A DNA stretch of 64,000 bases from Terrimicrobiaceae bacterium (GTDB taxonomy: Bacteria; Verrucomicrobiota; Verrucomicrobiia; Chthoniobacterales; JAATET01): NCBI GenBank assembly GCA_028713285.1, contig JAQTOP010000008.1, forward strand, positions 1,572 to 65,571, written 5' to 3'. A program made the translations under genes and the position numbers. Under the pieces are notes generated by a model. The model was not told where the DNA came from and did not search any database. It saw only the letters and a program-made list of their open reading frames with translations. Positions 1 through 39,734 of the stretch are shown here, in pieces. The stretch's first letter is position 1. Each line of letters begins with the position of its first letter.

Positions 1-643
1 CGGTTGCTCCCGCCATGATCGATGCGCCGTGGAGCCGATACTTCACAAGTGGCCGCCGCAGGGAAATGACTGGAAATTCCGCCGCCACCCGCGTCCACAA
101 ATCCATGTCCTCGCAGGCGGGCCGCTCGCGATAGCCGCCGAAGCGCTCGGTCACGATGCTGCGCCGAAACAAAGCGCTGCCGTGCGCAAAGGGCGCGCGA
201 AAGCACATATCCCACGCCACCAGATCGGCGTGGCCGCCCGTTCGCCACCGCCCGCGGTATCGACCTGCGTCATCGACCAGCCACGCGTCGGCACCGATGA
301 GAGGCACGGCGGGATTGCCCCGCGCGACGGCGATTTGCGCGGCCAGCCTGCCGGGCGCGCTCAGATCGTCCGCATCCTGCCGGGCGATCCATTCGCCCCG
401 CGCCTCGGCCAGGCCTCGATTGAGTGTCGCCACGAGGCCCAGATTGCGCTCGTTTCTCAACACGCGCACACGGGAATCGCGCACGGAAGCGAGCTCATCC
501 GGCGATCCATCCGTGGAGCCATCATCGATCGCCAGCACCTCAAAATCGCAAAATCGCTGGCGCAGGATGCTTTCCACGGCTGCGCGCAAATACCGCCCGC
601 CATTGAAAACCGGCAGCAGCACGGTGACCGCAGGATCGTTCAT
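1..643 (-). CDS. Glycosyltransferase family 2, partial (C-terminus runs off the left edge)
   Basis: Not in the ORF track because it is open at the window edge. My reverse-complement read from the ATG at 643..641 gives MNDPAVTVLLPVFNGGRYLRAAVESILRQRFCDFEVLAIDDGSTDGSPDELASV, the canonical GT2 N-terminal signature. The sequence tcat at 640-643 is an ATGA overlap with the upstream gene's stop. Confidence 0.8.
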   Translation of the reverse strand, partial: MNDPAVTVLLPVFNGGRYLRAAVESILRQRFCDFEVLAIDDGSTDGSPDELASVRDSRVRVLRNERNLGLVATLNRGLAEARGEWIARQDADDLSAPGRLAAQIAVARGNPAVPLIGADAWLVDDAGRYRGRWRTGGHADLVAWDMCFRAPFAHGSALFRRSIVTERFGGYRERPACEDMDLWTRVAAEFPVISLRRPLVKYRLHGASIMAGAT

Positions 644-1806
644 CGCGCACGCTTCGCGAGCTGGCCCGCGAAGATCTCGGCGTGCCGGTCCACCCATTTC
701 TCCCGGTCGAAATTCGCTTCCGCACGCGCCCGCGCCGCACGCGCAAACTGGCCGTGCCGCTCCATGATCCCGGCCACGGCATCCGCCACACGTTCTGCGT
801 CGGGGGCATGATCGCGCGTCCAGTCATCCGGCACATCGACCAGCCTGCCCGCTTCCCCGCCGACGAGCTCCGGCATGCCGCCGCTGCGCGATCCCACGAC
901 GGGCACACCGCAGGCCATTGCCTCGATGGGCACCGTGGGACACGGATCGTTGTATTTCGGGTGCAGCAGGACGTGCGCCTGCCGGTAGATCGCCGGCGCC
1001 TCCTCCTGCGTAAAGCGTGGAAGCAACCGCACCTGATCGGACAGGCCAGCCCGCTTGATGCAGTCGGCAACCTGGCGCGCGCCTCCCTCCCAGCGAAACT
1101 CGCCGGCAATCGTCAATCGCACCGACATTCCGCGATGCATCAATGCCGCGAGCGCATCAAGCGATGCGCGCACCCGATAGAACGCATGATTCGTTCCCAT
1201 CGCGAGCAACTCCCACACGTTCGCCGGCGGCGGTTGCGAGCCGGGAGTGAATCGCGCAAGGTTCACGGGATTCCATAGCACCTCGGATGGCGCATCCACC
1301 CGGCCGAGGTAGCGATCCGCGCAGTCCCGGCAAAACGCGCTTTGATAGACGACGTGGTCCGCCTGCGCGATCAAGCGCCGCATCGGCTCGTTGAACCATG
1401 GATAACCCGGACCGCACCACGCGGGATACGCGACGCCATTTTGATTCCACACGATCGCGATCCCCCGCCGCTTCGCCCACGCCGCGAGTTCGCCGGCGTG
1501 CGGCACGAGATGGAGCACGCTGCTCACGAGATACAGCACGTTGAATCCCTCCGCCGCCTCGCCGAATCGCTCGCGCAAATGCTCCAGCTTCACCCCTCCG
1601 CCGATCCGCGTTTCCTCCGCGCGCGGCGGCGGTTCGATCCAGCCGAAGTTGAGGCGGATGCCCTCTTTCGCAGGCGGCGGCAATGCCTCCAGCTGCCGGC
1701 GAAATGCCGCGCGGCCTGGCGCATGGTAAAGCTCGCCGGCCCTCGCGATGGCCTCCCGCATCGCCCAATCGAGCGCCGGCACGGGCTCGACGATTCTCAC
1801 GCCCAT
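640..1806 (-). CDS. Glycosyltransferase family 1 (GT4-like, GT-B fold)
   Basis: C-terminal motif EAMACGVPVVGSRSGGMPELV...GRLV is typical of GT1. The ORF-track start at 1908 overlaps the upstream sulfotransferase. ATG at 1806 (MGVRIVEP) or GTG at 1800 (a GTGA overlap) is more likely. Confidence 0.8.
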   Translation of the reverse strand: MGVRIVEPVPALDWAMREAIARAGELYHAPGRAAFRRQLEALPPPAKEGIRLNFGWIEPPPRAEETRIGGGVKLEHLRERFGEAAEGFNVLYLVSSVLHLVPHAGELAAWAKRRGIAIVWNQNGVAYPAWCGPGYPWFNEPMRRLIAQADHVVYQSAFCRDCADRYLGRVDAPSEVLWNPVNLARFTPGSQPPPANVWELLAMGTNHAFYRVRASLDALAALMHRGMSVRLTIAGEFRWEGGARQVADCIKRAGLSDQVRLLPRFTQEEAPAIYRQAHVLLHPKYNDPCPTVPIEAMACGVPVVGSRSGGMPELVGGEAGRLVDVPDDWTRDHAPDAERVADAVAGIMERHGQFARAARARAEANFDREKWVDRHAEIFAGQLAKRAR

Positions 1807-2612
1807 GGCAAATCGCGTCCGAGCAAGCGGGAAAGCTCGCGATTGCGCGGCGCATAGAATGCCCTCAACTCCGCCTCGATTTCGGCCGGCATGGACTCCG
1901 CGTAGCATCCTTCGCGCGAGACCGGCAACGGCGGAATGTCCGCCTCCGGCAAACGGATGTGGTGGAGCACGGCGCGCGTCGTCCCAAGCGGATCGGCAAA
2001 AAATTCCTCACTGATGAGAAAGAGACATTGTTCACGCGGAAAGACCGCCAGCCAGCGCTCGAGGGCGCGCGCATACCACCCGCACAGCACGTAGCGCGCG
2101 GGATGCCACGCCTGGCGCGCGGCCGCATCGACCAGCGGATACACGGAGGGCTCGTCGAGCCAGCGCATCGCACGACGCACGGTCGTCGAGAAATCGGCGG
2201 TGTCGGTGCCAAATTTCCGAAACATCTGGTAGTCGGACCATGCACGCACGACCGGATCGCGGAAGAGAAAGACGAGCCGGGCATTCGGCAGGACATCATG
2301 CACGTTCCGGGGCGCGACGGGATTCGTGAAGTATTCCACGCTGCCATCGCCGACGATGAAGTTGGCCCCCGGCCATCGAATCGGATAATTCATGGCGGCG
2401 CGGAGGCGGCTGCCGGGCCAGTGCACGAAATTCGTCGGCTCCTTGCGGACGCCGCGGCGGATGCGGGGATGCGTCACGAGGAATTCGTAAAGCATCGAGG
2501 TGCCGCATTTCGGCGCGCCGGGGATCACAAACGCCGGCAGCGGCCGCAGCAATGCCGTGAACAGCCGCCACGCCTTCTCGATTTCAAAACGCAGGTCCGG
2601 TGGTCGCGTCAT
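1797..2612 (-). CDS. PAPS-dependent sulfotransferase
   Basis: 5-prime-PSB-like motif GAPKCGTSML and 3-prime-PB-like motif FRDPVVRAWSDY. ATGA overlap with the upstream stop at 2609-2612. Confidence 0.8.
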   Translation of the reverse strand: MTRPPDLRFEIEKAWRLFTALLRPLPAFVIPGAPKCGTSMLYEFLVTHPRIRRGVRKEPTNFVHWPGSRLRAAMNYPIRWPGANFIVGDGSVEYFTNPVAPRNVHDVLPNARLVFLFRDPVVRAWSDYQMFRKFGTDTADFSTTVRRAMRWLDEPSVYPLVDAAARQAWHPARYVLCGWYARALERWLAVFPREQCLFLISEEFFADPLGTTRAVLHHIRLPEADIPPLPVSREGCYAESMPAEIEAELRAFYAPRNRELSRLLGRDLPWA

Positions 2613-3715
2613 GGTTCGATCTCCCTTCGCATCCGCGCGGCCATCCTGCCGCAGACCGCCTCCCAGGTGAAGCGATCCCTTGCCATTTCGCGCCCTGCGG
2701 CGCCGAATTTTTTGCGCATCTCCGCATCCGACAAAAGCCGCCGGAGCCTGTCGGCAAGCTCATGAGGTTCGCACAGAAAGCCTGTCACACCGTCCACGAC
2801 GCGCTCGGAGTTGCCGCCCACGCGAGTCGCCACGACCGGCAGCCCTTGCGAGGCCGCCTCGGCCAGCACCGATGCCGACGGATCCATCCGGCTCGGCAGG
2901 CAAAAGACATCCGCCTGCCGGTAGAGGTCAGCCATGCGTTCCGATGCGAGCCGCCCGAGCACGCGCACGCCCGGTTCGCTCAATGCAGGCGAACACCCTG
3001 CTATCCACAGCTCGGCGTCGGAGGTCGCGGCGCGCACCGCGCGAAATGCCGCGACGAGTTCCGGCCCTCCCTTGCGCTCCCAATCCACGCCGGCAAAGAG
3101 GACGATCCGTCCGCTCCGGCGGGCATCGCCGGGCTGCGTCGCAGGCACGTTGCAGCCCGAGAACACACACTCCACGCGCTCCGGCGGCACGGAATAATCC
3201 TCGCGCAACGACCGCGCGGCGAACCCGCTCGAAACGAAATTACAATCCGCCATCGCATACAGGTCACGTTCCATCCGCCGCCATTCCGCGGCGACCGGCA
3301 ATAGCGGCCTCGGCTCGGGATAGCGCAGGTTCGCGAGATACGTGTGGTCGGTGTAAAGAAAATGCGGCACCGCGTCGTGCCGCGCATCGAAGAGCGATTG
3401 CGTCTGGAAAACGAACGCCGTTTGAGCCGGGTCGATGTTGGCCCGCACCCATTCGCGCACGGCGGCGATCACCGTGGGAATGCGAGGAAAAAAGTCCCGG
3501 GGAGGCCGGCGCTCCCGCAGGACGCGCCCGCCATACCGCAACGCCACCTCGGCCGTGGCGCGAAAACGTAGCGCGGCGCTTCGCCCGACAATGTCGCGTT
3601 CGACATCGATGGCCCTCCATTCGAGATCGGAAAATTCCCGGCGAAGGCCGTCCAGAACTGCTTCGTTGATGAGCGAAAAATCACCAATCCGAAAAAAGGC
3701 CGCGCGCCGTTTCAT
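2609..3715 (-). CDS. Glycosyltransferase family 1
   Basis: PSRMDPSASVLAEAASQGLPVVATRVGGNSERVVDGVTGFL is a GT1 EX7E-type C-terminal domain. It shares a 1-nt overlap (TGATG) with the upstream gene. Confidence 0.85.
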   Translation of the reverse strand: MKRRAAFFRIGDFSLINEAVLDGLRREFSDLEWRAIDVERDIVGRSAALRFRATAEVALRYGGRVLRERRPPRDFFPRIPTVIAAVREWVRANIDPAQTAFVFQTQSLFDARHDAVPHFLYTDHTYLANLRYPEPRPLLPVAAEWRRMERDLYAMADCNFVSSGFAARSLREDYSVPPERVECVFSGCNVPATQPGDARRSGRIVLFAGVDWERKGGPELVAAFRAVRAATSDAELWIAGCSPALSEPGVRVLGRLASERMADLYRQADVFCLPSRMDPSASVLAEAASQGLPVVATRVGGNSERVVDGVTGFLCEPHELADRLRRLLSDAEMRKKFGAAGREMARDRFTWEAVCGRMAARMRREIEP

Positions 3716-4827
3716 CAGTTCGAGCGGGCGCAGGTTTCCCCGATCCAGGCCGCATGCCGCTCCGCGACGACACCCGTTTCGTAATGCTGCCGCACCGCTT
3801 CGAAGGCGGCGCGCCCCCCTTCGCGCAAGCGTGAGGAATCCGACAGAAACCCGTCGAAAGCGGATATCCAGTCGGCGAAGGTCTCGCAGAGGGAAACTGC
3901 GTCCGGCTCGGACCGCTCAGCGGCATCGACATAACTCGGCACCGGGCTCGCGATGGCGGGCAGGCCGCATGCCATGCCGAGGGTGATTTTCCATTCGGTG
4001 TGCGAAAGGTTGTATGGCACGTCGAGAAAGCGCGGGGAGACGATCACTCCGCCCGTGGCGTAGAGCCCAAACAGATGTGGAATGTCGCGATAGCGATGCA
4101 GCGCGTGCGGCACGCGACCCAGAAATCGGCCGAACCGTTCGCGCACCTCGACGGGCCAGCGCTTCGCGGCCGTTTCGATATCGTCGGTGACGAGCTGTAG
4201 ATGAATCCGGTCTGCGAGTGCAAGGAACGCCTCCTCCGCCGCGAGGAACTCGAAGAGCTTCGCCGCCGTGCCGCTCCACCAGACCTGCAGTCGGCCATCG
4301 CGAATCGGCTGCGCCTCCGCCGCTGCCGGACGCAGCCGCAGATTCACATTGTCGGGCACCCACGTCGCGGCGGAATTGAAGCTGCGGCACACCTCCGTGA
4401 GCCTGCGCGAGGAGCCGATCACCGCGTCGGCGAGTTCCGTGATCTCGACGGCGTCCCTGCGCTGCGAAGCGCCTGGCGCCATGGCGTCGAGGCGCGCCTC
4501 GCCCTCGAAGCGCGTGTAATAATCGACGTTCGCCTCGAATAGGACCCGCGTTCCCTCACCTTTCAGTCGCCGGGCAAGCGCGAGGCAGGCCGGTCCCATC
4601 GACTTGAGGAAAACCACGGCGTCGTAGCTCCTCCACGGCCGGTAGAGTTCATACCGCCAGCCGGAGTTCGCCGCCCGCAGCGCGTCGGCAATCCAGCGAA
4701 AGCGCATCAGTCCCATCGGCGAGGCCGCGTCGTCCCAGCCGGATACCAGCGCCAGCGGCGGCATGCCCGTGCGAAGCGAGGCCACGCCAGGCACCCGGCT
4801 GTTGATGATGAACCCGACTCGCTTCAC
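3715..4827 (-). CDS. Putative GT-B fold glycosyltransferase (divergent)
   Basis: The C-terminal half (SPRFLDVPYNLSHTEWKITLGMACGLPAIASPVPSY) resembles a GT1 donor-binding domain. The first 186 aa of the 556-aa track ORF overlap the upstream gene and are Arg/Pro-rich junk. GTG at 4827 gives a GTGA overlap with the stop at 4824. Confidence 0.55.
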   Translation of the reverse strand: MKRVGFIINSRVPGVASLRTGMPPLALVSGWDDAASPMGLMRFRWIADALRAANSGWRYELYRPWRSYDAVVFLKSMGPACLALARRLKGEGTRVLFEANVDYYTRFEGEARLDAMAPGASQRRDAVEITELADAVIGSSRRLTEVCRSFNSAATWVPDNVNLRLRPAAAEAQPIRDGRLQVWWSGTAAKLFEFLAAEEAFLALADRIHLQLVTDDIETAAKRWPVEVRERFGRFLGRVPHALHRYRDIPHLFGLYATGGVIVSPRFLDVPYNLSHTEWKITLGMACGLPAIASPVPSYVDAAERSEPDAVSLCETFADWISAFDGFLSDSSRLREGGRAAFEAVRQHYETGVVAERHAAWIGETCARSN

Positions 4828-5621
4828 GGGCGGCTCGAAAGAAAGGCGGCGATGCGCTCCGCAACCAGTGGGCCGCGCGCGTATTTCTGCTCCTTCCAAT
4901 CCGCCCCGGAGCGGCCGCCGGCCATGGCGCGGAGCCGCGCGAGGAGCTTGCCGACGGTCCAAGCGCGGCGGTCCATGATGTTGCGTCGCGGGCGCCCTCC
5001 GGCGGCATCCCGCGACGAGCGATCGAGAAAGCAAAGGTGCAGGCAGCGAAAATCCGAGTCGTCCCAATTCGACCGGTCGTGAAGATTCAGGCGCTGCGAG
5101 GCAGCAAAGCCGGGGCGAAAGCGGATGTCGCCGCCGTGCAGACGCTCTACGATTTTTCCATCCCACGAATCGATCGCCGCGAAGTTGTAGAGCTTCGTCA
5201 TGCTGCGGCAGGGCGGCGCGAGATGGCCCTCGGCCCGGGCCGCGGCGAGGTCGAGCCGTTTGACGTTGAGCACATTTCCAAATACCGCCCACCACGCATC
5301 GAACTCCCCCGCCTCCAGGCGCGCCCTCAGCCGCGCAAGGCCGGCGGGGTCGTAAATCTCGTCGCCGTCCACGCCGAAGATCCACGTCGCCGTGCCGGCA
5401 TATCGTTCGATCATCCGGTGCGATTCTGCGGAGTCGCGGCAGCGGCGCAAGGTCAGCTTGCGGCCATATTCCCGGGCGAGCCGCCCGAGCACGACGGGGG
5501 TTTCGTCACTCGATTCGTGGTCGCACACGAGGAACTCGTCGCAGAAATCCATCGCGCTGCGAATCGCCCACTCCACGAAGCGGTCTTCGTCGCGCACGAG
5601 CATGATACCGACGATCTTCAC
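4824..5621 (-). CDS. GT2-like glycosyltransferase (GT-A fold)
   Basis: MKIVGIMLVRDEDRFVEWAIRSAMDFCDEFLVCDHESSDETP and a later GVDGDE motif. GTG start at 5621 in a GTGA overlap. Confidence 0.7.
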   Translation of the reverse strand: MKIVGIMLVRDEDRFVEWAIRSAMDFCDEFLVCDHESSDETPVVLGRLAREYGRKLTLRRCRDSAESHRMIERYAGTATWIFGVDGDEIYDPAGLARLRARLEAGEFDAWWAVFGNVLNVKRLDLAAARAEGHLAPPCRSMTKLYNFAAIDSWDGKIVERLHGGDIRFRPGFAASQRLNLHDRSNWDDSDFRCLHLCFLDRSSRDAAGGRPRRNIMDRRAWTVGKLLARLRAMAGGRSGADWKEQKYARGPLVAERIAAFLSSRP

Positions 5622-6493
5622 TCGAAGGTCAGCCGCTGGATCGCCTCAACCCAGTCGTTGCGCCCCACCAGGCTGAGGAAAAAAAGCGCATTGCGATTGA
5701 CGGCGCCCTTGCGCATGAGCCCGCTCCAGATCAGCGGATAGGGCCCGTGGTAGTAATGATGAGCGCCAAGGATGCGCTCGTCCACAGCCGCGCGCTCCGT
5801 CTCGCCGGCGAACTTTCTCACGAGGAAGCGATACAAATCGGTCGCGCTCTTGAACCGTTCGAGCCGTCCGGGATACGGGATGGCTGCATGCGCCCGCCCT
5901 TCGATGCGGTAGCTGTGCATCGTGAGCTCCGCCGGGAGACCCGCATCCTTCGCTCCTCCGCGCCGCTCAAACGCCCATGGCGTGTGCTCGGACTCGGGCA
6001 GGCCCGCGATCAACCGGTCGAGCAGATCGCGCAACGCATCGAGCCTCCACAGCGCGGGATGAAGCGGATATTTCCACAGCGTATCCGGAAGGCACCGATC
6101 GAGCTGCCAGTCGCGCCACTTCACCACTTTGCCGTTTGTCGCGCGCCCCTGCCCGTAGCCCGACAAGGAAATGCTCACCGCGCCGAGCTCGCGCATCATT
6201 GCAGGCAGCGTCTCGTTCAAATGCGCGGCGTGGCAACGCCCAAGCGGCGGGTGGTCGTCGAGAATAAGGTAGGCCTGCGCAAAGCCGTCGGCCATCAATG
6301 CGTCGCACGCGGACCGCACGACCTTCATCCAGTCGCGCGGATCGTCGTGCAGCGGCAGCGCGCAGGGATCGCCCGAGATCCCGCAGAGCCGCAGGGGCGG
6401 AGCGTCTTTCCAAAACTCTTGAATCCGCGCCCGGGTGAAATCCGTAAGCGACCGGTATTTCTCGCAGGTCGAAATGAGGATGCAGGTGTTCAC
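5618..6493 (-). CDS. Hypothetical protein inside the glycosyltransferase string (possible GT-A-like, LILDDHP)
   Basis: Coherent 291-aa ORF starting at GTG 6493 (GTGA overlap with the stop at 6490). I recognise no family. CILISTCEKY ... AYLILDDHPP is loosely reminiscent of a nucleotide-sugar transferase core. Confidence 0.5.
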   Translation of the reverse strand: MNTCILISTCEKYRSLTDFTRARIQEFWKDAPPLRLCGISGDPCALPLHDDPRDWMKVVRSACDALMADGFAQAYLILDDHPPLGRCHAAHLNETLPAMMRELGAVSISLSGYGQGRATNGKVVKWRDWQLDRCLPDTLWKYPLHPALWRLDALRDLLDRLIAGLPESEHTPWAFERRGGAKDAGLPAELTMHSYRIEGRAHAAIPYPGRLERFKSATDLYRFLVRKFAGETERAAVDERILGAHHYYHGPYPLIWSGLMRKGAVNRNALFFLSLVGRNDWVEAIQRLTFE

Positions 6494-7470
6494 AGCCGCC
6501 CCGATTCCACCGCGAGCCGTTGGATGGTGTCCGCAAATTCGAGCACCATGCACTCGCCGGACGGCATCTGTTCCAGCAGGCGATGGCGCAAGTCGGCAAG
6601 CCGCACAATGGCCTTGCGGATCGCTCCCGCGACGTCGTCACGAAAGCCGATTCCGTAGCGCATGCCCGCCTCGACGATGCCACCGCCGTCCTCGTGATAC
6701 ACGAGCGGCAGGCCGCACTGCGCGCCCTCGACGTGGTGCATGCCGCACGGCTCCCAGCGCGAGGCCGTGAGGTAGAGATGGCATTCGCGCAGCTTCGCCG
6801 CGAGCGGCGGGCCGGTCATCGGCGCGAGCGTCTCCGTCGCCTTCCAGCGGATTTCCTCCGGCCAGCGGCCGATCACCCGAAATGCCACGCCGGGAAGCGC
6901 ACCCGTCGCGATGATGTCATCGACGCGCTGATAGACGTCGTAGCCCTTGAGCCAGTGCGCGGACCAATGGTGGGTGACGACGCGCACCGTTTCGCCCGGC
7001 CCCGGCAGGTGATTGCCAATCGGATGATACACGCGCGGATCGGCGCCATTGTAAATCACCGCATGCGGAAGGGTCGGGTCGAACCATTTCGCGCTGAAGT
7101 AATCGCGCAGCCACTCGGAGATGAAAACGGTGTGGTCCGCGAGCGCGTTCGTCCGGCGCAGCAGCTCGTCGATGTCGTCAGTGCCCTTGCGCTGATCGCA
7201 TTCATTGATCCGGTGCAGGATGGGCACCTGCGGATGCCTCTCGCGAAAGTTTTCCAGTTCCGCCAGACCGAATCGCTTTGCGCGGTGGTCCCGGCGGGGG
7301 TCGATCACGAGCACGACATCCGGATCGCGATTCAGATCGAAAACGACGCGCCACCCGCGCCGCCACATGCAACTCGCAAGCTGGGATACGAACGGACTTG
7401 CACCGCCCCAAGAAGAGCGCGTGGGCACGAGGCTGATCGCCAGCGTGGGTTTGGGTTTGGAAAAAAACAT
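6490..7470 (-). CDS. Putative GT-B fold glycosyltransferase (GT1-like)
   Basis: TASRWEPCGMHHVEGAQCGLPLVYHEDGGGIVE resembles a GT1 C-terminal domain. ATG at 7470 (MFFSKPKP). The upstream part of the 449-aa track ORF overlaps the next gene. Confidence 0.6.
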   Translation of the reverse strand: MFFSKPKPTLAISLVPTRSSWGGASPFVSQLASCMWRRGWRVVFDLNRDPDVVLVIDPRRDHRAKRFGLAELENFRERHPQVPILHRINECDQRKGTDDIDELLRRTNALADHTVFISEWLRDYFSAKWFDPTLPHAVIYNGADPRVYHPIGNHLPGPGETVRVVTHHWSAHWLKGYDVYQRVDDIIATGALPGVAFRVIGRWPEEIRWKATETLAPMTGPPLAAKLRECHLYLTASRWEPCGMHHVEGAQCGLPLVYHEDGGGIVEAGMRYGIGFRDDVAGAIRKAIVRLADLRHRLLEQMPSGECMVLEFADTIQRLAVESGRL

Positions 7471-7477
7471 CGTGAAA

Positions 7478-18399: not shown

Positions 18400-18413
18400 G
18401 GTTTTGTCGCAAT

Positions 18414-26600: not shown

Positions 26601-26632
26601 AAATCAGAATGCCGAAAATTCGGCGGGGCAAA

Positions 26633-26968: not shown

Positions 26969-26970
26969 CG

Positions 26971-32695: not shown

Positions 32696-32929
32696 TTATC
32701 CGGCCGTCGTCTTGCTTCCGATCACATCGATAAACTGCCGGAGACTTAGAGTTTCCAGCGTCTCCTCATCGCTAAATCTGATCCCAAACTCCTCCTCCAG
32801 GGCCAGGATCAGATTCATTTGCCTCAGGGAATCCCACTCTTCAATCGTTTCCGAGCTTGAGTCGTCTCCAATTTGCGATTCCTCGATTCCGAAGACCGAG
32901 GCCATCACCCGCTTAATTCTGGTTTCCAT
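32696..32929 (-). CDS. Acyl carrier protein
   Basis: 77 aa with IEEWDSLRQMNLILALEEEFGI. The DSL serine is in the usual helix-2 context of phosphopantetheine attachment. Confidence 0.8.
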   Translation of the reverse strand: METRIKRVMASVFGIEESQIGDDSSSETIEEWDSLRQMNLILALEEEFGIRFSDEETLETLSLRQFIDVIGSKTTAG

Positions 32930-34667
32930 ATCGAATGCTTATGTAATGTAAATTCCTGGGTTGATAGACGTCCAATTCCAACCGGTAATTCCTGACTGTC
33001 TGCGTGGATTCCATGGTCTGAAATCCGACCCTCTCATAAAAATCGATCACCTGGTTGTTTTTTTGCGTCTGAATGTAGGTTGCCTCGACGGCTTCGATTC
33101 CCGCGTCTTTCATAAAGGGAATCAGAAAATCGAAGAAGGCCAATTCGATATTACGTCCAATCGTCCGGCAACTCATCAACAGCGTATCGATCGTTGCACT
33201 CCCTGCATCCACCCCGCGACAAACGATGCACAATCCCACCAGTCCATATCCGCCAAACTTATCAGCCACGGAAAAGGAGACTACTGAGTCGGACCGGCTG
33301 TCGATGAAGTTCCGAATGTCCGCTTCGGTGTATCGTTTGGTCGTGAGATTGAATTGGTTTGTCTTCTGCGTCAGTTGGGCAAGGCGCGGCGCGTCCCTGA
33401 TCTCGTCAATGGCAATTGAAACACCCAACTGCAGCGAGGCGAGATATTCCTCGACGTTTTGAAACGCCGAAATTCCCGCCTTGCGTTCGATTTCGCGCTG
33501 ATACATCGCCCCTCGTTCGGCATCCTCCTTCGAGAGGACACCGGAATAAAAGAGCCGCGAAGTCTTCCTCAGCAGTTCAGGATAATCATGCAGACTTTCA
33601 GGAACCCGGACGGCCAGCACCTCCGGCATACCGCTCCGGACCCGCTCAATCTCAAAATCCGAATCATCAATAAACACCAGGCTGTTCAGTCCGATATTCA
33701 AGTCCCGGGCGATCGCCGCAAGATTGGATGCTTTGTCTTCCCAATTGATCCTTTTAATTGCAATCGAGGCATCGCGCAGGCAGGCATCGGGGTGATTCTC
33801 GATGACATGATTCACATCATCGAGGTTATTCTTGCTGCACAACCCGATCAAAACTCCCTTCCGGCTCAACTCGACCGCGATTTGCTGGATTTCTTCGAAT
33901 ATCGCGCCGGCTTTTGACCTCGCGGACATTTCGATGCCGTCAAACCCGTCTTCTCCGAGCACCCCCTTCCAGAGTGTATTATCGCAGTCGAAGATAAGCG
34001 CCTTCCTGGCTTTCCCCGCCACCGATTGGATGATCGCGCCGCAATAGTCCGCATAAGCTCTAAAGAATTCAATCGAGTACAGGGATTTCGAAGAATAAAA
34101 AAATCTGAAATCCACCGCTTTCGATACGGACATCGACGCAAGGATCTTTTCGACATCGACGAGGAAAAGATTGCTGCATGCGTCTTCCTTCGCCGTCAGG
34201 TGGGCATTGAGCTCTTCGCAAATTCGATCGAAGTTATTCCTTCCAATGACATGGTGATTGAATGCCATGCTCGAGAATTGATTGAAGAAAACAAGCGACG
34301 TCCTTGAGAGATTGTTAAGAACAAAGTCAATTTCCGCTTTAACCGCGGAGACCAGGTCCTGAATCTCGACAGCCTCCATTACATTTGCCCTCGCTTGCAG
34401 CAAAGGTCTAATGTTGCAAGCCTCCCAAAATACGATGACCAAATCCGCTTCTCGAAACTTTAGAGAATCCTGCGGGATGTTGTCGTAGTCACCCGAAGAA
34501 ACTCTGGCGTGGATTCCCGCCCGTCGAAGCGGATGCTCGAAAATAGCGTTCAGCTGAGCAACAACGATATTTGACAACACGGCAATTGTGTACGCCGGCG
34601 TGCCTTCCATGCTCTTCCCAAGCAGGGCATTCTCACGCAGAATTTCGCTATAACTCAATCCAGCCAT
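32913..34667 (-). CDS. FkbH-like HAD-IIIC phosphatase/transferase with a C-terminal GNAT-like domain
   Basis: KALIFDCDNTLWKGVLGEDG (HAD motif I, typical of FkbH), LVFIDDSDFE, and a C-terminal FGGYGLVGLCIV...RTIGRNIELAFFDFL...FYERVGFQ. Confidence 0.85.
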   Translation of the reverse strand: MAGLSYSEILRENALLGKSMEGTPAYTIAVLSNIVVAQLNAIFEHPLRRAGIHARVSSGDYDNIPQDSLKFREADLVIVFWEACNIRPLLQARANVMEAVEIQDLVSAVKAEIDFVLNNLSRTSLVFFNQFSSMAFNHHVIGRNNFDRICEELNAHLTAKEDACSNLFLVDVEKILASMSVSKAVDFRFFYSSKSLYSIEFFRAYADYCGAIIQSVAGKARKALIFDCDNTLWKGVLGEDGFDGIEMSARSKAGAIFEEIQQIAVELSRKGVLIGLCSKNNLDDVNHVIENHPDACLRDASIAIKRINWEDKASNLAAIARDLNIGLNSLVFIDDSDFEIERVRSGMPEVLAVRVPESLHDYPELLRKTSRLFYSGVLSKEDAERGAMYQREIERKAGISAFQNVEEYLASLQLGVSIAIDEIRDAPRLAQLTQKTNQFNLTTKRYTEADIRNFIDSRSDSVVSFSVADKFGGYGLVGLCIVCRGVDAGSATIDTLLMSCRTIGRNIELAFFDFLIPFMKDAGIEAVEATYIQTQKNNQVIDFYERVGFQTMESTQTVRNYRLELDVYQPRNLHYISIRYGNQN

Positions 34668-34694
34668 TTATCAATTGCACCCAACAATTCGGGG

Positions 34695-35612
34695 TCACCA
34701 GATGTCGTTCCGTCGCTTTTGCAACACCAAGGCCATGGACCGGGGCAAAAAGCGAAAGTCGGACGGATAGGAACCCGGCGATGCCGAGTAGGTGGATACG
34801 ACGCGAAAGCCGGCGTCTTCCGCCAGTTTGATGATTTCCGATTCGCGTTTGAATTCCGTGATGTGGTCAATTTCAGCGGCGGTTAGCGCCCCCGTTACGA
34901 AAGCATATCCGCCGGGGTTAAGATTGCCGGCGAGGCTCGAAAACAGCAAATCCGGCCGCTCGACATGCTCGAGAAGAAAACAGGAGATCGCAGCGTCGTA
35001 TTGCCCCGCCCCTGTGAACGCCAGCGCGTCCCCGACTATGTAGTTGGTGCGATCCGAGAATCCGATCCTGCGCGTCATGTCAATCGCAAGCTCGACAGAT
35101 TTTTGGCTAATATCCACGCCATCAAGGGTCCATTGCTGCATCCCGTGCAAAAGCAGCAGACCCCAAACGCCCGAACCCGAGCCGAGTTCCAGCAAGGTTC
35201 CTCCCTCATCCGGGAGCACGGGCAGGAAATAGTCCTTGAAAAAGCCGGCGATTTTCAAGTGGTGTTCCCACGCGAAAGTCGTTGTAAAGACTCCCCAGTG
35301 GTAGTTTTGCATGTGATCGGCATTGTTATAAACGCTCTGGTAAACTTCCGCGTAGGTCTTGTTTTTGTATGCACCCCGTTTTTCGTATTCCATCTGCGAC
35401 TTGCCCACATCCAGAACGAAGCTGTTGTATCCGTTGATCAGGACAGACGCGAATTCTTCCGATCCAAGATAATCCGCCGCCCAGCCGACCATAAGGTCGC
35501 CCAGCTCGTCGAACAGGGCCGCGTTCCTTTCGCGATTGGCGAGGACCTTCGGCCCAAAGAGCCGGTTCTTTGCAAACTCCGCGAGGAATATTTTCAGGTT
35601 GGTTGAGATCAT
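34695..35612 (-). CDS. Class I SAM-dependent methyltransferase
   Basis: TLLELGSGSGVWGLLLL (motif I), GVDISQKSVELA, YDAAISCFLLEHV, LNPGGYAFV. Confidence 0.75.
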   Translation of the reverse strand: MISTNLKIFLAEFAKNRLFGPKVLANRERNAALFDELGDLMVGWAADYLGSEEFASVLINGYNSFVLDVGKSQMEYEKRGAYKNKTYAEVYQSVYNNADHMQNYHWGVFTTTFAWEHHLKIAGFFKDYFLPVLPDEGGTLLELGSGSGVWGLLLLHGMQQWTLDGVDISQKSVELAIDMTRRIGFSDRTNYIVGDALAFTGAGQYDAAISCFLLEHVERPDLLFSSLAGNLNPGGYAFVTGALTAAEIDHITEFKRESEIIKLAEDAGFRVVSTYSASPGSYPSDFRFLPRSMALVLQKRRNDIW

Positions 35613-35695
35613 GACTCTTCGTTGGTATTAATGACTGTTTGCCAATCCTTGGGTGGAAAATACCGATGCCCGCAATAGTCGGCAGGCCGACCGGT

Positions 35696-36364
35696 TCATT
35701 CAGAGGGAAGCTTTCCCATCACTCTTGCAGGATTGCCCATGAGGATTGAAAAAGGCGGCGCATCGCTCATCACCACACTTCCCGTGGACACGATGGAGCC
35801 CTTTCCGATGCGCACGCCCCTTAGGATGCTGGAATTGGCATAGATTGCCGCGTAATCTTCGATCACAATGGGCGCGGTTGGGATGTCGCCCTTTTCCGTG
35901 GGATGACCGGTGGCAAATATTCGTTTAACGCCTTCCGCCCGGGTTATGTAGTGCGTTTCGTGAGCAAAGTCGATGATGTTCACATTGTGGGCAACACCGA
36001 CGCAATCGCCCATGACGATACTGTCCCCTGACCAGACCCGGGTGCCTTCGCCGATGTAACATCCCTCACCGATCTCTATTTTCCCACCGTAAGCAAAGAC
36101 GGTGAGCTCGCCCCGAATATGGGTGTTTTTGCCAACACGAACAGACGCTGGATTTTGCTGCAAATTGACGACCCTGGCGGATTCATAGAACCGGGCCGAA
36201 TCGGCGACGCTCGCCCCTTTGTAACACCTGCCAGCCTTCACTTGATCGAGTTGAGCTTCGATGAATTCAAAATCGATCAGATTTGCATCGACCAACTTCA
36301 GAAGGAGTCGCGTCGCCCGCCTCTTCAGCATGCGTTTGATGTTTTCCATCTTTCTTCTGAACAA
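35696..36364 (-). CDS. Hexapeptide-repeat (left-handed beta-helix) acyl/acetyltransferase
   Basis: VGKNTHIRGELTVFAYGGKIEIGEGCYIGEGTRVWSGDSIVMGDCVGVAHNVNII ... IEDYAAIYANSSILRGVRIGKGSIVSTGSVV shows the hexapeptide periodicity. Confidence 0.85.
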   Translation of the reverse strand: MFRRKMENIKRMLKRRATRLLLKLVDANLIDFEFIEAQLDQVKAGRCYKGASVADSARFYESARVVNLQQNPASVRVGKNTHIRGELTVFAYGGKIEIGEGCYIGEGTRVWSGDSIVMGDCVGVAHNVNIIDFAHETHYITRAEGVKRIFATGHPTEKGDIPTAPIVIEDYAAIYANSSILRGVRIGKGSIVSTGSVVMSDAPPFSILMGNPARVMGKLPSE

Positions 36365-36430
36365 AGTATCGTTAACTTGCAGGCAGCCTTTTCCGCCTTG
36401 CTTTGGAAGGCCCGGTCTCGCGGTCTGTGT

Positions 36431-37324
36431 TCATATTCGTTGTTCAAGCGCAGGCTCGCCGGCCTGTGCAGGTTCCAAGGGCTTCATCGCAAAGAACGAA
36501 AAGATCTCATATCCCTCGCTGCGGGCACGAACCGCGCCGGCGTCGTGCCGGACGCCCTCCACGAAGGGCGCAGGGTAGGTGTTGATGACCGAATCGGGCG
36601 GCGCCAGCACTTTTCTCAGGGTCAACTCCGCGTTGACGAACGCGAGGAGGTATTCGTCGAGATAGTAGCAATTCTCGTCCTTCGTGATGAAGTTCAGCGG
36701 GTGTTTGGCGAAAAAATCCGCGCGCTGGCTCTCGTTCCAGATCACCACGTCCCGCAGGCAGCAAACCACCCCGCCCGGCTTCAAAATCGTCCGGATTTGC
36801 CGAAGGAATTCCACGAGGGAATGAATATGGTGCAGCACCTCGCGGATATAGACCACGTCGAAGGAATTGGGCTCGATGTCGAGCTTCTCGCCGGAGTGAA
36901 AGCGAAAGTTGACCTTCACGCCGTCGAGGCCGTTCAACTTCTTTGCCGCGCCGAGGCCGGCAAGCAGCCCGGCTGAGGAATCCATGCCCGTGACGTTGAA
37001 TCCCTCTCGAGCGAAGGCGTAACTCGCCACGCCGTTGCCACAGCCAAAATCGAGCACCTTGCTGGATGGAGAGGGGGCGACGCCCAGCGCCGCGAGCATG
37101 GCAAGCAGCGCGCGAAATTCGTCGCTCGCATGGAACCGCCTGGCATTGTCGGGAAAGTCCGGCGTCTTGTAGCAGAGGCGGAGCAGCTCGCGCATGCCGC
37201 CCTCCTCCCATGCCCACAAGTAGGCGCGATCATAGGCATCGTTTTTGTCGATCGCGATCCGGCGGGAGAAAGCGGTGGAGGCCATCTGAAAAAGTCTTTC
37301 GATCATCACGCTAAAGAGACGCAC
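36431..37324 (-). CDS. Class I SAM-dependent methyltransferase
   Basis: KVLDFGCGNGVASYAFAREGFNVTGMD ... FDVVYIREVLHHI ... LKPGGVV. Confidence 0.75.
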   Translation of the reverse strand: MRLFSVMIERLFQMASTAFSRRIAIDKNDAYDRAYLWAWEEGGMRELLRLCYKTPDFPDNARRFHASDEFRALLAMLAALGVAPSPSSKVLDFGCGNGVASYAFAREGFNVTGMDSSAGLLAGLGAAKKLNGLDGVKVNFRFHSGEKLDIEPNSFDVVYIREVLHHIHSLVEFLRQIRTILKPGGVVCCLRDVVIWNESQRADFFAKHPLNFITKDENCYYLDEYLLAFVNAELTLRKVLAPPDSVINTYPAPFVEGVRHDAGAVRARSEGYEIFSFFAMKPLEPAQAGEPALEQRI

Positions 37325-37369: not shown

Positions 37370-38767
37370 CTAATCGGTCTCCATGAGGTCGTCGGCGGCT
37401 TCGACGGTGTTCAGGATTTTTTCGGTATGCAGCCGGGCGCCATCATGCGCAACAACGCTCCACGTCCTGCGCTGATAATACTCGCCGGCATTCCATGGAT
37501 CGTCGCACGAGACGAGGAACTGTGCGCTTCGGCGCGCCGCGATGGTGACGCGGATGGGGCGGGAGAATTTGAGGTGGACCTGATAGACACCCTCCCGCAA
37601 ACCGACGCATGCGAGGTCGATGCGCACTTCGTATTCTCCGGGCTGGACCCTGGACAGGCTTCCGCCATCCCGGCGGGAAAGCATCTTCAGCACCTGTCTT
37701 GGTTTCTCATCCAGCTTCATCGCCTCGAGGGAGGGATGGCGATACACAATCGCTGTAAAGTTTAGCTGCTCGATGGGCTGCTTCACCTGGAACCGCGCGA
37801 CGATCACCGCATCCTCACCCGGCTTCACCGGCCCGCCGGTCGCGGACTGCATGTCCACTCCAAGAATTTCCGCCTCATCGGAGGCTTGCTGATCGCCGTC
37901 CTCCGTCTGGTTGACCATCGCCGCCCGATCGCCCTTTTGATCCTCGATCAGGTGACGTTCGTATTGCTGAATCACCGATCCAATGGGCCCGAAGTCCACG
38001 ACTTCTCCGCGGCGCAAATACAACGCGGTTTCCGCAATCGAGAGCAGGATGCTCGGGGAGTGATGCACCATGACGAGGGACATGCCGCTGGAGCGCATTT
38101 CGAAGAGCCGCTCGAGGCACTTCCTGCGAAAATTCATGTCGCCGACGGCCAGCACCTCGTCGAGCAGAAGGATGTCGGGCTGGGTGCTGATGGCGCAGGC
38201 AAAACCCAGCCGCGCCACCATCCCCGAGCTGTAGGTTTGCACCGGCGCATCGATCGCGTAGCCGATCTCCGAGAATGCCACCACGTCGTCGAAGCGGTCC
38301 TTGATCTCCTGGTAGGTCAGCCCGAGGACCGACATGTTCGCGAAGACGTTCTCGCGGCCGGTCAGCACGGGATTGAACCCAGCGCCCAGCGCGAGCAACG
38401 GCGCCAGGCGGCCCCGCACGGTCACCCGCCCGGTGGTGGGCTTGATGAGCCCCGCGACGATGCGCATGAGCGTCGTCTTTCCGCAGCCGTTGATCCCGAC
38501 GATGCCCACCGCGTCACCCGAGCGCAGTTCGAAGTTCACATCCTGCACCGCCCAGAATTCATTTTTGCGCAGGACACCGGCGCGTTGCGAGAGTCCGACG
38601 ACTTCGCGCCCGATGTCCTGGACGCCGTAGAAAAGCGATCGCTTCAAGTCGCGGCAAAAGCGCTTCGAGACATTCTCGAGCGCCAGCACGACGTGCTTCC
38701 CGGAATTGCCATCGGCAGGCGCCGCAGTTTCGGAGGCCGCAGGGTTGATCAGTTCAGATACGTTCAT
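37370..38767 (-). CDS. wzt: Polysaccharide ABC exporter ATP-binding protein with a C-terminal extension of about 200 aa (Wzt-type)
   Basis: Walker A GINGCGKTTL, signature YSSGMVARLGFA, Walker B LLLDEVLAVGD. About 200 aa of beta-rich sequence follow the NBD (ILGVDMQSATGGPVKPGEDAVIVARFQVKQ...YEVRIDLACVGLREGVYQVHLKF). Confidence 0.9.
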   Translation of the reverse strand: MNVSELINPAASETAAPADGNSGKHVVLALENVSKRFCRDLKRSLFYGVQDIGREVVGLSQRAGVLRKNEFWAVQDVNFELRSGDAVGIVGINGCGKTTLMRIVAGLIKPTTGRVTVRGRLAPLLALGAGFNPVLTGRENVFANMSVLGLTYQEIKDRFDDVVAFSEIGYAIDAPVQTYSSGMVARLGFACAISTQPDILLLDEVLAVGDMNFRRKCLERLFEMRSSGMSLVMVHHSPSILLSIAETALYLRRGEVVDFGPIGSVIQQYERHLIEDQKGDRAAMVNQTEDGDQQASDEAEILGVDMQSATGGPVKPGEDAVIVARFQVKQPIEQLNFTAIVYRHPSLEAMKLDEKPRQVLKMLSRRDGGSLSRVQPGEYEVRIDLACVGLREGVYQVHLKFSRPIRVTIAARRSAQFLVSCDDPWNAGEYYQRRTWSVVAHDGARLHTEKILNTVEAADDLMETD

Positions 38768-39734
38768 TGGCAGAAACCATCGTCAATCGTTCGGTCCTCG
38801 CGCCGGGCCGGTCTGCGGTATCCCATGCGGCAACGCACGCCGCCAGCGACTTCGCGAAGGGCCGGGGTTGCCATCCGGGCAAAAGACGCCGCAGCTCCGC
38901 GACGTCCGCCTGCCAGTGCGCGGGATTCCCACGCAGCATCTCGCGTCCGAATACGATCTTCGCCGGGACATCCGCGCAGTCCCGCACGGCTTCGGCGACG
39001 TCACGCACGGCGACACTCGCACCCGACGCCATGTTCACGGCGCGAAAACCGGGCAGCCGTCCGGCGGTCATCGCCTTCACCACGCCGATTGTGGCAGCCG
39101 CCGCTTCGTCCTCCGCGAGAAAATCCCGCCGCTCATCGCCCGTTCCCTTCAATCGCAACTCCGGCATCCCGGCCCGCAATTGGTCGAAGATCTCCCACAC
39201 GAGCAATCGGCGCTGGCGGGGACCGAAGACCGAGAAAAATCGCAACGAGACGATGGACAGACCGAAGCAGCAGGCAAACTCGACGCCCATCTGTTCCGAG
39301 AGCAGCTTGTGAAATCCGTAAGGGGACTCGGGCTGGCACGCCGCGGCCTCCGATATCGGAAGCTCCACCGGCGAGCCATACACCGCGGCGCTGGATGCGA
39401 GCGCGACCATGGGCCGCCGCCCGGAACGCCGGATCGCCTCCAGCACGCGAAACCACAAGCTCGCGGAAGCTTCGAAATCCTGGAGCGGCGCCGCGAACGA
39501 CTCGCCGACCGAGGCGGCGCCGGCAAAGTGCAGCACGCAGTCCGGATCCTCTTCGCGCATCACGGCCGCCAGCGTGTCGGGCGAGGAAAAATCCACGGAG
39601 CGATAGTCGCCGGGCCAGGCCGGCGGCGGAGTTGCCGCGCGGCCGATCGCGACGACTTCGCATCCCGCGTCGGACGCCGCGCGACCGACCGCGCCGCCGA
39701 GGAAGCCGGAAGCGCCTGTGATCACGCATTTCAT
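38754..39734 (-). CDS. NAD-dependent epimerase/dehydratase (extended SDR)
   Basis: MKCVITGASGFLGGAVGR (GxxGxxG), SPYGFHKLLSE (YxxxK). ATG at 39734 in an ATGA overlap with the nadE stop. The rest of the 798-aa track ORF is an artefact overlapping nadE. Confidence 0.85.
   Translation of the reverse strand: MKCVITGASGFLGGAVGRAASDAGCEVVAIGRAATPPPAWPGDYRSVDFSSPDTLAAVMREEDPDCVLHFAGAASVGESFAAPLQDFEASASLWFRVLEAIRRSGRRPMVALASSAAVYGSPVELPISEAAACQPESPYGFHKLLSEQMGVEFACCFGLSIVSLRFFSVFGPRQRRLLVWEIFDQLRAGMPELRLKGTGDERRDFLAEDEAAAATIGVVKAMTAGRLPGFRAVNMASGASVAVRDVAEAVRDCADVPAKIVFGREMLRGNPAHWQADVAELRRLLPGWQPRPFAKSLAACVAAWDTADRPGARTERLTMVSANERI

Follow-up and report, generated by a model that had tools for sequence, protein, structure and literature searches.

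What kind of surface glycan, if a single one, is built by a run of about forty kilobases of glycosyltransferase, methyltransferase and sulfotransferase genes in an uncultured verrucomicrobial bacterium? Sulfated polysaccharides are common in animals and algae and have rarely been linked to genes in bacteria; Verrucomicrobia are known chiefly as degraders of these polymers. The locus considered here occupies positions 1-39734 of a 64,000-nucleotide stretch, hereafter the window (contig JAQTOP010000008.1, positions 1,572 to 65,571, assembly GCA_028713285.1), from a Terrimicrobiaceae bacterium. We consider it probable that these genes form one mosaic surface-glycan locus, dependent on an ATP-binding cassette (ABC) transporter of the O-antigen Wzm/Wzt type, and that its product would be sulfated, methylated and acylated. 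A preliminary description of the same DNA had proposed such a locus, and the family assignments support its outline, with sulfotransferases of the 3'-phosphoadenosine-5'-phosphosulfate (PAPS) type, S-adenosylmethionine (SAM) methyltransferases, acyltransferases and an ABC exporter.

Organisation of the locus

Codon-usage gene calling, completed by one gene recovered by homology, bears out the 35 genes counted earlier between positions 2 and 39734, and the spacing of the GenBank protein accessions (MDD5198727, ...738, ...745, ...749) agrees with this number. All but one lie on the minus strand, the only plus-strand gene being an Acyl_transf_3 gene at 15380-16573 (g15); every other gene of the locus cited below is on the minus strand. 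Gaps between genes never exceed 109 bp, and most junctions overlap or leave no more than 10 bp, with many 4-bp overlaps. The leftmost gene is cut at the window edge, at its 3' end, so that the 39.7 kb of the locus, earlier given as about 40 kb, are a minimum. Scans for promoter and terminator patterns across the locus returned the counts expected from shuffled sequence and indicated no operon boundary. The guanine-cytosine (GC) content of the window is about 62-67% and falls to 52-59% between 32 and 38 kb.

Searches with Pfam and NCBIfam profiles, whose scores are given below in bits, confirmed most of the inventory in the preliminary description: six methyltransferase genes with seven domains, two acyltransferases and a Wzm/Wzt pair. 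Its figure of about 15 glycosyltransferase genes is fair. Ten exceed Pfam thresholds (low coordinates 2, 640, 2609, 4824, 7478, 10043, 17212, 19541, 23583 and 30322), two are weak candidates (3715 and 6490) and a further two are proposed by fold or transitive homology, about 14 probable in all. The functions that it had reported as missing are likewise not found by profile searches: no gene of the 64-kb window carries an APS (adenosine 5'-phosphosulfate) kinase or ATP sulfurylase domain, the window has no initiating transferase of the WecA/WbaP type (its sole Glycos_transf_4 protein is MraY, in the dcw cluster), and it holds neither a Wzy_C/WaaL protein nor an outer-membrane export protein. 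Among the called genes of the window, none gives a Polysacc_synt or Wzy_C-type match that would indicate a Wzx flippase or a Wzy polymerase. The initiating enzyme, the ligase, the outer-membrane steps and the supply of PAPS must be encoded elsewhere.

Sulfotransferases

Two proteins of the locus, ST1 (1797-2612) and ST3 (28656-29375), are solidly predicted by profiles and motifs to be bona fide PAPS-type sulfotransferases. ST1 scores 50.7 bits against Sulfotransfer_3 (cut-off 27) and 45.1 bits against Sulfotransfer_1 (cut-off 22), and its GenBank entry, MDD5198727.1, carries the name 'sulfotransferase'. Its matches in the PDB are a bacterial sulfotransferase (3rnl, E 1.5e-15) and the heparan sulfate 3-O-sulfotransferase HS 3-OST-3A (E 6e-15), and its KCGTS and RDPVVRAWS segments align to the PAPS-binding motifs of both. 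In enzymes of the heparan sulfate 3-O-sulfotransferase type the catalytic base is a Glu; the candidate catalytic Glu of ST1, in 'RKEP', has its counterpart in the Glu of 'KKEA' in 3rnl, a correspondence based on alignment only.

ST3, encoded directly downstream of wzm, reaches 91.4 bits against Sulfotransfer_1 (cut-off 22) and matches 44 sulfotransferase sequences of the PDB (best E 1.1e-12), lining up with solved enzymes at both PAPS-binding motifs. It is a minimal domain of 239 amino acids (aa) of the cytosolic SULT type, with no coiled coil or added module. K10-S-G-S, K65-x-H67, R91...S99 and R202-K-G-x-x-G-D-W are invariant in its five homologues (to 42% identity), and K65-S-H67 aligns to the KSH of 8xgz, making the His a candidate, by alignment only, for the SULT-type catalytic base. 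Neither the three sulfotransferase-type proteins nor any of the methyltransferases has predicted membrane segments, which suggests that they act in the cytoplasm before export, in keeping with the Wzm/Wzt route.

The preliminary description had counted three sulfotransferases. The six PAPS-motif strings that it quoted are present in ST1, ST2 and ST3, and the count stands for ST1 and ST3, which exceed Sulfotransfer cut-offs; ST2 (22672-23586) reaches no such threshold and belongs instead to PF10364 ('NKWYS, putative capsular polysaccharide synthesis protein'; 69.3 bits), its only significant family. The motif Lys, Arg and Ser, whose conservation had been proposed as a check, are nevertheless maintained: across 33 homologues of ST2 (29-60% identity), G12-K13-V14-G15-S16, R92, P94 and S100 do not vary, just as the motifs of ST3 do not in its own five. 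When these 33 family members were scanned singly, 14 matched Sulfotransfer_2 (weakly; best E 3.4e-4) and five Sulfotransfer_1, with no other recurring family. Against PDB sequences the family profile reaches, at E <0.1, solely heparan sulfate 3-O-sulfotransferases, and its R-x-P..S motif aligns with the 3'-phosphate-binding (3'-PB) motif of HS 3-OST-3A (E 0.013). In an AlphaFold2 model of ST2 (predicted local distance difference test, pLDDT, 92.6), strand 1 leads into the Lys loop and the central strand 84-91 into the R-x-P motif.

By virtue of these invariant residues and recurrent sub-threshold profile matches, rather than of family membership, ST2 is probably a divergent PAPS-dependent sulfotransferase. 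The surroundings of PF10364 genes elsewhere are consistent with this assignment. Such genes occur within glycan loci of a Gammaproteobacteria bacterium, of a Caldilineaceae bacterium and of a third assembly, in which they sit between two canonical sulfotransferase genes. In metagenome loci distant from the window, PF10364 genes adjoin ST3-like genes: a PF10364 homologue stands ahead of each of two distant ST3 homologues of about 41% identity (L010, 846-2265; L011, 2447-3871), so that the two sulfotransferase-type genes travel together beyond the Terrimicrobiaceae-like clade. We think it probable that PF10364 as a whole is a widespread, unrecognised family of glycan sulfotransferases. A literature search on the function of PF10364/NKWYS found nothing relevant, and the present proposal would give this Pfam family a testable functional assignment.

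On an unrelated contig of 893 kb (L018, 1551-11818), a PF10364 gene flanked by two canonical sulfotransferase genes lies near genes for very large Flg_new_2 and FG-GAP repeat proteins. This neighbourhood hints at the sulfation of something besides a classical O-antigen there.

Related loci

Related loci were collected by scanning genomes and metagenomes with ST3, and through contig look-ups with ST2 homologues. In all nine that have upstream DNA available, wzm directly precedes the ST3 homologue; the adjacency is recorded in the loci designated L001 and L003-L009. These share a common backbone, nadE-epimerase-Wzt ... Wzm-ST3 ... ST2-g20, on which cassettes are swapped (g20, at 19541-22720, is a multidomain glycosyltransferase described below). 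L003 follows the order of the window through a family-4 glycosyltransferase (GT4) gene, Wzm, ST3, a dual methyltransferase, a small coiled-coil gene, a fused family-2 (GT2) and GT4 gene, and ST2. L001 shares nadE-epimerase-Wzt and an arrangement in which Wzm and ST3 stand between a Methyltransf_24 methyltransferase (MT24) and a GT4, followed further on by ST2-g20; in place of the FkbH cassette of the window it carries NeuB, a CMP (cytidine monophosphate)-transferase, a polysialyltransferase-like gene and a hexapeptide transferase. L004 does not have the block from 12985 to 18417 (g14-g17) and has a second PF10364 gene, and its g20 homologue is directly joined to homologues of g18, g13, g12, g10 and g9, which indicates that both halves of the window locus were inherited together.

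Across these loci ST3, Wzm, Wzt and MT24 are 66-83% identical, the GT4 protein g26 (30322-31782) 55-68% and ST2 57-60%. The gene for g26 always adjoins the Wzm-ST3 pair, on its upstream or its downstream side, and the pair is also flanked by a methyltransferase gene, either a single MT24 or a dual one. By gene, g20 is 65-83% identical in L001, L003, L004 and L007, g13 79% in L004, the dual methyltransferase g23 72-75% in L003 and L005, the O-methyltransferase g27 76-78% in L001, L004, L008 and L009, and the full-length L003 homologue of g22 is 68% identical. None of the related loci that were retrieved has a homologue of ST1. A conserved export core accompanied by swappable decoration cassettes is what one would expect of a single surface-glycan locus that varies with serotype. 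The L001 contig (JAATET010000071.1), labelled Chthoniobacterales, encodes a nadE 86% identical to that of the window within a syntenic locus, consistent with close relatives.

Export

The ATPase Wzt (37370-38767) combines an ABC domain (ABC_tran, 75.2 bits), with scores of 166-183 bits against the TagH/Wzt models of NCBIfam, and a C-terminal domain of about 190 residues. The permease Wzm (29395-30267), of the ABC-2 type, has six hydrophobic segments and matches the galactan Wzm model NF050109 (49.6 bits, E 3.8e-13, under the equivalog cut-off); it has no Pfam match itself. Its homologue in the L003-type locus, 66% identical, has a precomputed PF01061 (ABC2_membrane) match, and that of L004 has none on record.

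The C-terminal domain of Wzt appears from its sequence to be rare and lineage-specific: a search of 1.84 billion representative proteins gave just eight relatives at E<=1e-3. Of these, three match Wzt_C and nothing else, weakly (best 27.3 bits). In one relative, P0158 (897 aa), three matched stretches lie outside any ABC ATPase.

A crude composition scan found coiled-coil-like stretches in three proteins of the locus: in g26, a GT4 enzyme (Glycos_transf_1, 41.5 bits), towards its C-terminus (about residues 341-463); in g22b (26633-26968; 111 aa), which has weak coiled-coil-type Pfam matches and is 55% identical to a gene product of 116 aa at the same position in L003; and in g19 (19225-19518; 97 aa), a membrane-anchored helical protein that is hydrophobic at its N-terminus and has counterparts by homology in L003 and L004. 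The same scan found none in the sulfotransferases and methyltransferases. A plus-strand open reading frame at 26609-27046 is spurious; homology places the real gene there on the minus strand, as g22b.

Glycosyltransferases

One of the multi-domain glycosyltransferases is g22 (23583-26600), a bifunctional protein of 1005 aa with a GT2 domain (Glycos_transf_2, 85.8 bits) and a GT4 domain (Glyco_trans_1_4, 78.1 bits), and it is a candidate for the polymerase. Another, g20, is made of 1059 residues, with GT4 domains on residues 479-768 and a C-terminal part of about 290 residues. The N-terminal 400 residues or so are paralogous to those of g13 (10897-12894; 665 aa), with 34% identity over 413 residues and an E-value of 5e-72 (21431-22720 and 11600-12894).

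These N-terminal domains have no Pfam match, and phmmer against PDB sequences returned nothing significant. The AlphaFold2 model of g20 residues 1-430 (pLDDT 89.1) gave as top Foldseek hits the Campylobacter sialyltransferases Cst-I and Cst-II (probability 0.99-1.00, E 3.6e-4 to 1e-3, target-normalised TM 0.45-0.48); for g13, the evidence for this fold comes via the g20 model. Across 22 sequences the positions GP..N..D..FH..G.DG are invariant (consensus GTGPSL, CNS, DPIFH, GCDGR), and two homologues match PF01973 (MptE-like) at 25-28 bits, under the cut-off of 34.6. Judging from the model, the domains may be CMP-sugar-dependent transferases of a GT42-like fold, and they look like an uncatalogued CMP-sugar-transferase-like family fused to a GT4 or to another domain. 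In the C-terminal 215 residues or so of g13 (window 12290-12894 region), the segment AGGGFMCDYDVVN, which has no profile match, resembles the DxD region of transferases of the GT32/Caps_synth type.

Further GT2 enzymes are encoded at 2-643 (g1, cut at its 3' end; Glycos_transf_2, 104.9 bits) and at 10043-11041 (g12, with a start at 10888 or 11041; 88.4 bits against the same profile), and a GT2-like protein at 4824-5621 (g6) just exceeds the Glyco_tranf_2_4 cut-off (28.0 against 27.5 bits). GT4 enzymes are found at 640-1908 (g2, with a start at 1806 or 1908; Glycos_transf_1 68.4 and Glyco_trans_1_4 69.3 bits), 2609-3715 (g4; Glycos_transf_1, 92.4 bits) and 7478-8623 (g9; Glyco_trans_1_4, 39.3 bits; 74% identical to its L004 homologue). 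A probable GT4 is encoded at 6490-7480 (g8; Glyco_trans_1_4, 25.6 bits, under the cut-off); its start is uncertain, as the open frame extends to 7839, yet the neighbouring g9 ends at 7478. The protein encoded at 3715-4827 (g5) is possibly GT4-like, its sole match being Glyco_trans_1_4 at E 0.062.

Predicted methylation, acylation and post-export modification

The six methyltransferases, with their seven domains, belong to several families. One is an FkbM-family enzyme (g11, 9405-10079; Methyltransf_21 46.3 and TIGR01444 78.4 bits), one a dual methyltransferase (g23, 26971-28662; Methyltransf_12 66.8 and Methyltransf_24 62.5 bits) and one a TylF-like O-methyltransferase (g27, 31779-32663; Methyltransf_24, 65.1 bits). 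The other three are class I SAM methyltransferases, at 16520-17215 (g16; Methyltransf_12, 59.5 bits), 34695-35612 (g29; Methyltransf_23, 53 bits) and 36431-37324 (g31; Methyltransf_11, 73 bits).

The last two lie in a low-GC island (32696-37324; 49.9-59.7% GC against 62-68% elsewhere) which also holds a 70-aa acyl carrier protein (ACP; 32696-32908, GC 51.6%) bearing a 'WDSL' serine motif (PP-binding 27.6 bits, cut-off 20.8). The adjoining g28 (32913-34667, GC 49.9%) is an FkbH-like HAD-IIIC protein of 584 aa (TIGR01686, 262.3 bits, cut-off 146.65), and g29 (GC 54.7%) is followed by g30 (35696-36364, GC 53.1%), a hexapeptide-repeat acyltransferase resembling WcaF and NeuD (Hexapep 35.3 bits; WcaF family 58.8 bits, under the cut-off). 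The island fills the slot where L001 and L004 carry the cassette of NeuB, CMP-transferase and polysialyltransferase-like genes. It bears no mobile-element signature: there is no tRNA in the window and there are no meaningful flanking repeats. What is known of the FkbH family suggests that the FkbH-ACP cassette makes a glycerate-derived, possibly O-methylated, acyl substituent, presumably from 1,3-bisphosphoglycerate, the substrate expected for the family. A literature search on FkbH in O-antigen loci found nothing relevant.

A second group of genes looks, from sequence comparisons, like a module for glycosylation and acylation after export. It comprises g17 (17212-18417), a GT2 protein resembling polyprenyl-phosphate sugar synthases (Glycos_transf_2, 74.3 bits), the polytopic membrane protein g14 (12985-15348; 787 aa, 14 hydrophobic segments) and the membrane O-acyltransferase g15 (Acyl_transf_3, 79.3 bits; six hydrophobic segments). 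In g17, three hydrophobic segments stand at the C-terminus, and the best NCBIfam models are AglJ, dolichyl-phosphate hexose transferase, PpgS and ArnC, all under equivalog cut-offs and to be read as a family-level match. Without a direct Pfam match, g14 is a probable GT-C glycosyltransferase (PMT_2/ArnT-like) through its 29% identity to P0150 (E 2e-30), whose PMT_2 match (28.4 bits, above the cut-off) lies within the region aligned to g14. An assignment of g14 as a WaaL ligase or Wzy polymerase was considered and rejected, there being no Wzy_C match and PMT_2/GT-C being its sole family link.

Proposed pathway and alternative explanations

The pathway that we propose, in its order of steps, its acceptors, its cap and the sulfate of its product, is a model drawn from the observed gene content, families, motif conservation and synteny. 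At the cytoplasmic face of the membrane, about a dozen GT2, GT4 and sialyltransferase-fold enzymes, g22 and g20 among them, would assemble a heteropolysaccharide on a polyprenyl carrier. Still in the cytoplasm, the chain would be O-sulfated by ST1, ST3 and probably ST2, O-methylated by up to seven SAM domains, and acylated, possibly with one glycerate-derived acyl group made on the ACP by the FkbH cassette. Wzm/Wzt would then export the finished chain, and by analogy with known transporters the Wzt_C-like domain probably reads a cap at its non-reducing end; sulfate (through ST3), O-methyl groups and an ulosonic acid (through the sialyltransferase-fold domains) are candidates for this cap. In the periplasm, g17 and g14 would add a side-branch sugar and g15 O-acyl groups.

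Several observations weigh against parts of this reading. Sulfate in the product is predicted from genes, and the window is without PAPS-synthesis, initiating phosphoglycosyltransferase, WaaL and outer-membrane genes, whereas published sulfated-capsule loci co-locate cysDNC (PMC11641403, PMC11766843). The C-terminal 186 residues of Wzt (37373-37930) match Wzt_C at E 1.4e-3 and 19 bits, below the cut-off of 30.4. ST2 stays under every Sulfotransfer threshold (Sulfotransfer_2 at E 0.24); Foldseek of its model against the PDB ranks SULT structures at the top without significance (E 0.14, TM about 0.3), phmmer against PDB sequences gave nothing significant, and hhalign of its family with that of ST3 and with ST1 aligns the right motif at a probability below 3%. 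No GtrA match and no four-helix membrane protein of about 120 aa among the called genes supplies the post-export module with a GtrA-like flippase. Four whole proteins (g5, g7, g10 and g18) stay without family assignment in Pfam and NCBIfam, as do g13 and g20 in their C-terminal parts. Finally, the plus-strand g15 breaks the minus-strand run, which makes at least two transcription units possible.

Part of these observations would be explained if ST2 were another glycan-tailoring enzyme sharing a nucleotide-binding loop, which would leave the locus with two sulfotransferases, a view to which the silent literature on PF10364 is also congenial. We hold this to be somewhat doubtful, as the residues that never vary coincide exactly with the Lys of the 5'-phosphosulfate-binding (5'-PSB) motif and with the 3'-PB Arg and Ser, in the positions that these take in sulfotransferases; moreover, the only secondary Pfam families to recur among the 33 members are Sulfotransfer_2 and Sulfotransfer_1, the family profile meets, among PDB sequences at E <0.1, heparan sulfate 3-O-sulfotransferases alone, at the 3'-PB motif, and PF10364 genes accompany canonical sulfotransferase genes in distant loci. 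That the sulfotransferases would modify a lipid, a small metabolite or a protein, their place in a glycan locus being incidental, seems highly improbable. ST3 is indeed closest to the cytosolic SULTs, which sulfate small molecules, but it is fixed beside wzm in nine loci, ST1 is nearest to polysaccharide (heparan sulfate) sulfotransferases, and all three sulfotransferase-type genes are interleaved with glycosyltransferase genes and overlap them. It could also be that the 40 kb comprise at least two distinct glycan pathways that happen to adjoin, such as a Wzm/Wzt O-antigen from about 16.5 to 39.7 kb and, from about 1 to 15.3 kb, another gene set (with ST1, GT-C and GT4/GT2 genes) for a different polymer or for protein glycosylation. 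The run is split by g15, which at its 3' end shares 54 bp with g16, L004 lacks the g14-g17 block, ST1 is without homologue in the related loci, and GT-C enzymes of the PMT_2 family also serve protein O-mannosylation. Such a division is nonetheless rather unlikely given a single exporter pair with no second flippase or polymerase, tiny gaps throughout, promoter and terminator counts at chance, and the homologues of g13, g12, g10 and g9 that directly follow that of g20 in L004.

A last alternative bears on the role of ST3 rather than on the unity of the locus. Alone or with adjacent methyltransferases, ST3 might install a sulfate-containing cap at the non-reducing end, not a sulfate on each repeat; the cap would stop polymerisation and be read by the C-terminal domain of Wzt, as an analogue of methyl-phosphate, methyl and Kdo caps. 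The adjacency of wzm and ST3 despite rearranged neighbours, the better conservation of ST3, Wzm, Wzt and MT24 than of g26 and ST2, the rarity and weak Wzt_C likeness of the Wzt domain, and the coiled-coil-like elements nearby (g26 C-terminus, g22b, g19) would fit this idea, coiled-coil rulers and caps read by carbohydrate-binding modules being the hallmark of polymerase-terminator systems (PMC11231755, PMC9445017, PMC3482155). We judge it unlikely because ST3 is a bare SULT domain, unlike known terminators, and because the syntenic loci all come from one narrow clade, in which adjacency may be simple inheritance. The locus moreover offers more conventional caps, either O-methyl groups or an ulosonic acid that the GT42-like domains in g20 and g13 would transfer, and literature searches found no sulfate terminator. 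Were it true, sulfate would join the short list of export-licensing caps.

Comparison with known systems

The statement of the preliminary description that this gene combination matches none known is not supported, for precedents exist in Vibrio (PMC11641403), Cobetia (PMC11766843), cyanobacteria (PMC8205485) and Pontiella (PMC7356697). Vibrio sp. KMM 8419 and Cobetia marina KMM 1449 make sulfated capsules with solved structures and assigned loci. Like the window locus, theirs bring an ABC exporter and an acyltransferase together with numerous glycosyltransferases and between one and three sulfotransferases, the polymer being completed and sulfated in the cytoplasm. They differ by their export, which is of the Kps type (group III capsule) with kpsS and kpsC in Cobetia and of group 3 in Vibrio, where kpsS is present and kpsC absent, and by the co-location of cysD, cysN and cysC (in Cobetia also cysQ). 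The window locus has an O-polysaccharide-type Wzm/Wzt exporter with a Wzt_C-like domain and a far denser methylation, with seven domains, and its product is predicted from genes.

The synechan (xss) cluster of Synechocystis PCC 6803, plasmid-borne, Wzx/Wzy-dependent and genetically validated, resembles the window locus in placing sulfotransferases of different subfamilies among glycosyltransferases in one extracellular-polysaccharide locus; the same work reports that ABC-type clusters in further cyanobacteria contain sulfotransferase genes (PMC8205485). A methyltransferase array, an FkbH-ACP pair and a GT-C module are all absent from xss. In the same superphylum-level neighbourhood, Pontiella sulfatireligans F21, placed by its authors in the class Kiritimatiellae of the Verrucomicrobiota, carries a putative cluster for a sulfated glycosaminoglycan-like polymer, in which GT2 and GT4 enzymes are accompanied by a methyltransferase and a sulfotransferase, by the large membrane protein YfhO and by an undecaprenyl-phosphate glycosyltransferase (PMC7356697). 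This marine anaerobe, in which a sulfated exopolymer was chemically detected, differs by a single sulfotransferase, a tuaB gene and the lack of any described Wzm/Wzt pair.

The polymerase-terminator systems of Escherichia coli O8/O9a and Klebsiella O3/O4/O5/O7/O12 share with the window locus a Wzm/Wzt exporter with a C-terminally extended ATPase, multi-domain polymerising glycosyltransferases, and methyltransferase genes and, in the window coiled-coil-like, coiled-coil elements beside the exporter genes; the putative CMP-sugar-type domain of g20, fused to glycosyltransferase domains, recalls WbbB. Their known caps are methyl, methyl-phosphate and beta- or alpha-Kdo, with no sulfotransferase (PMC3482155, PMC11231755, PMC9445017). 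In the window, by contrast, the C-terminus of Wzt remains below the Wzt_C threshold, a WbdD-like kinase is absent, and the coiled-coil-like stretches are found in small separate proteins and in a GT4. In the three-component extracytoplasmic glycosylation by GtrA, GtrB and GtrC (PMC11127046), g17 and g14 would correspond to two of the three components.

What sets the window locus apart is its Wzm/Wzt exporter with a weakly Wzt_C-like domain, its lack of nearby PAPS genes, its PF10364-type enzyme, its very dense methyltransferases, its FkbH-ACP cassette and its putative GT-C and sialyltransferase-fold modules. The preliminary description had not noticed these last three features, the polyprenyl-phosphate sugar synthase that goes with the GT-C protein, the C-terminal domain of Wzt or the small coiled-coil proteins; all but the last change the picture of how the glycan would be finished and exported. 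If the proposed pathway is correct, sulfated surface glycans would be extended past marine Gammaproteobacteria and cyanobacteria to a soil or freshwater lineage of Verrucomicrobia. Glycoengineering would also gain from it three candidate glycan sulfotransferases, compact and soluble and each from a different subfamily. This value is lessened by the source, a metagenome-assembled genome of an uncultured organism whose glycan is deduced from genes, and by precedent, a sulfotransferase and ABC-exporter glycan cluster having already been published.

Other genes of the locus and its surroundings

Three genes complete the left part of the locus: g7 (5618-6553) encodes a soluble protein with no Pfam or NCBIfam match, g10 (8563-9414) a protein with no significant family match, 65% identical to its L004 homologue, and g18 (18414-19307) one with a single hydrophobic segment followed by a helical stretch, which also has a homologue in L004. 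At the right end, g33 (38754-39734) is a NAD-dependent sugar epimerase/dehydratase (Epimerase, 131.5 bits), GalE/LegB-like with NCBIfam scores under equivalog cut-offs. Its start is overlapped by 4 bp (39731-39734) by the stop of nadE, which encodes NAD synthetase, and the order nadE-epimerase-Wzt is kept in L001, so that the glycan locus may be co-transcribed with a housekeeping gene.

Beyond this junction the window continues with housekeeping genes: after nadE come a MarR regulator, an M10 peptidase, SUI1, BipA, an AmiA-like amidase, AcrAB and the dcw cluster. Inside the latter, between murD and ftsW, a plus-strand gene at 61786-62637 encodes a 283-aa protein with LysM repeats, a position that to our knowledge is not usual for such a gene in dcw clusters.

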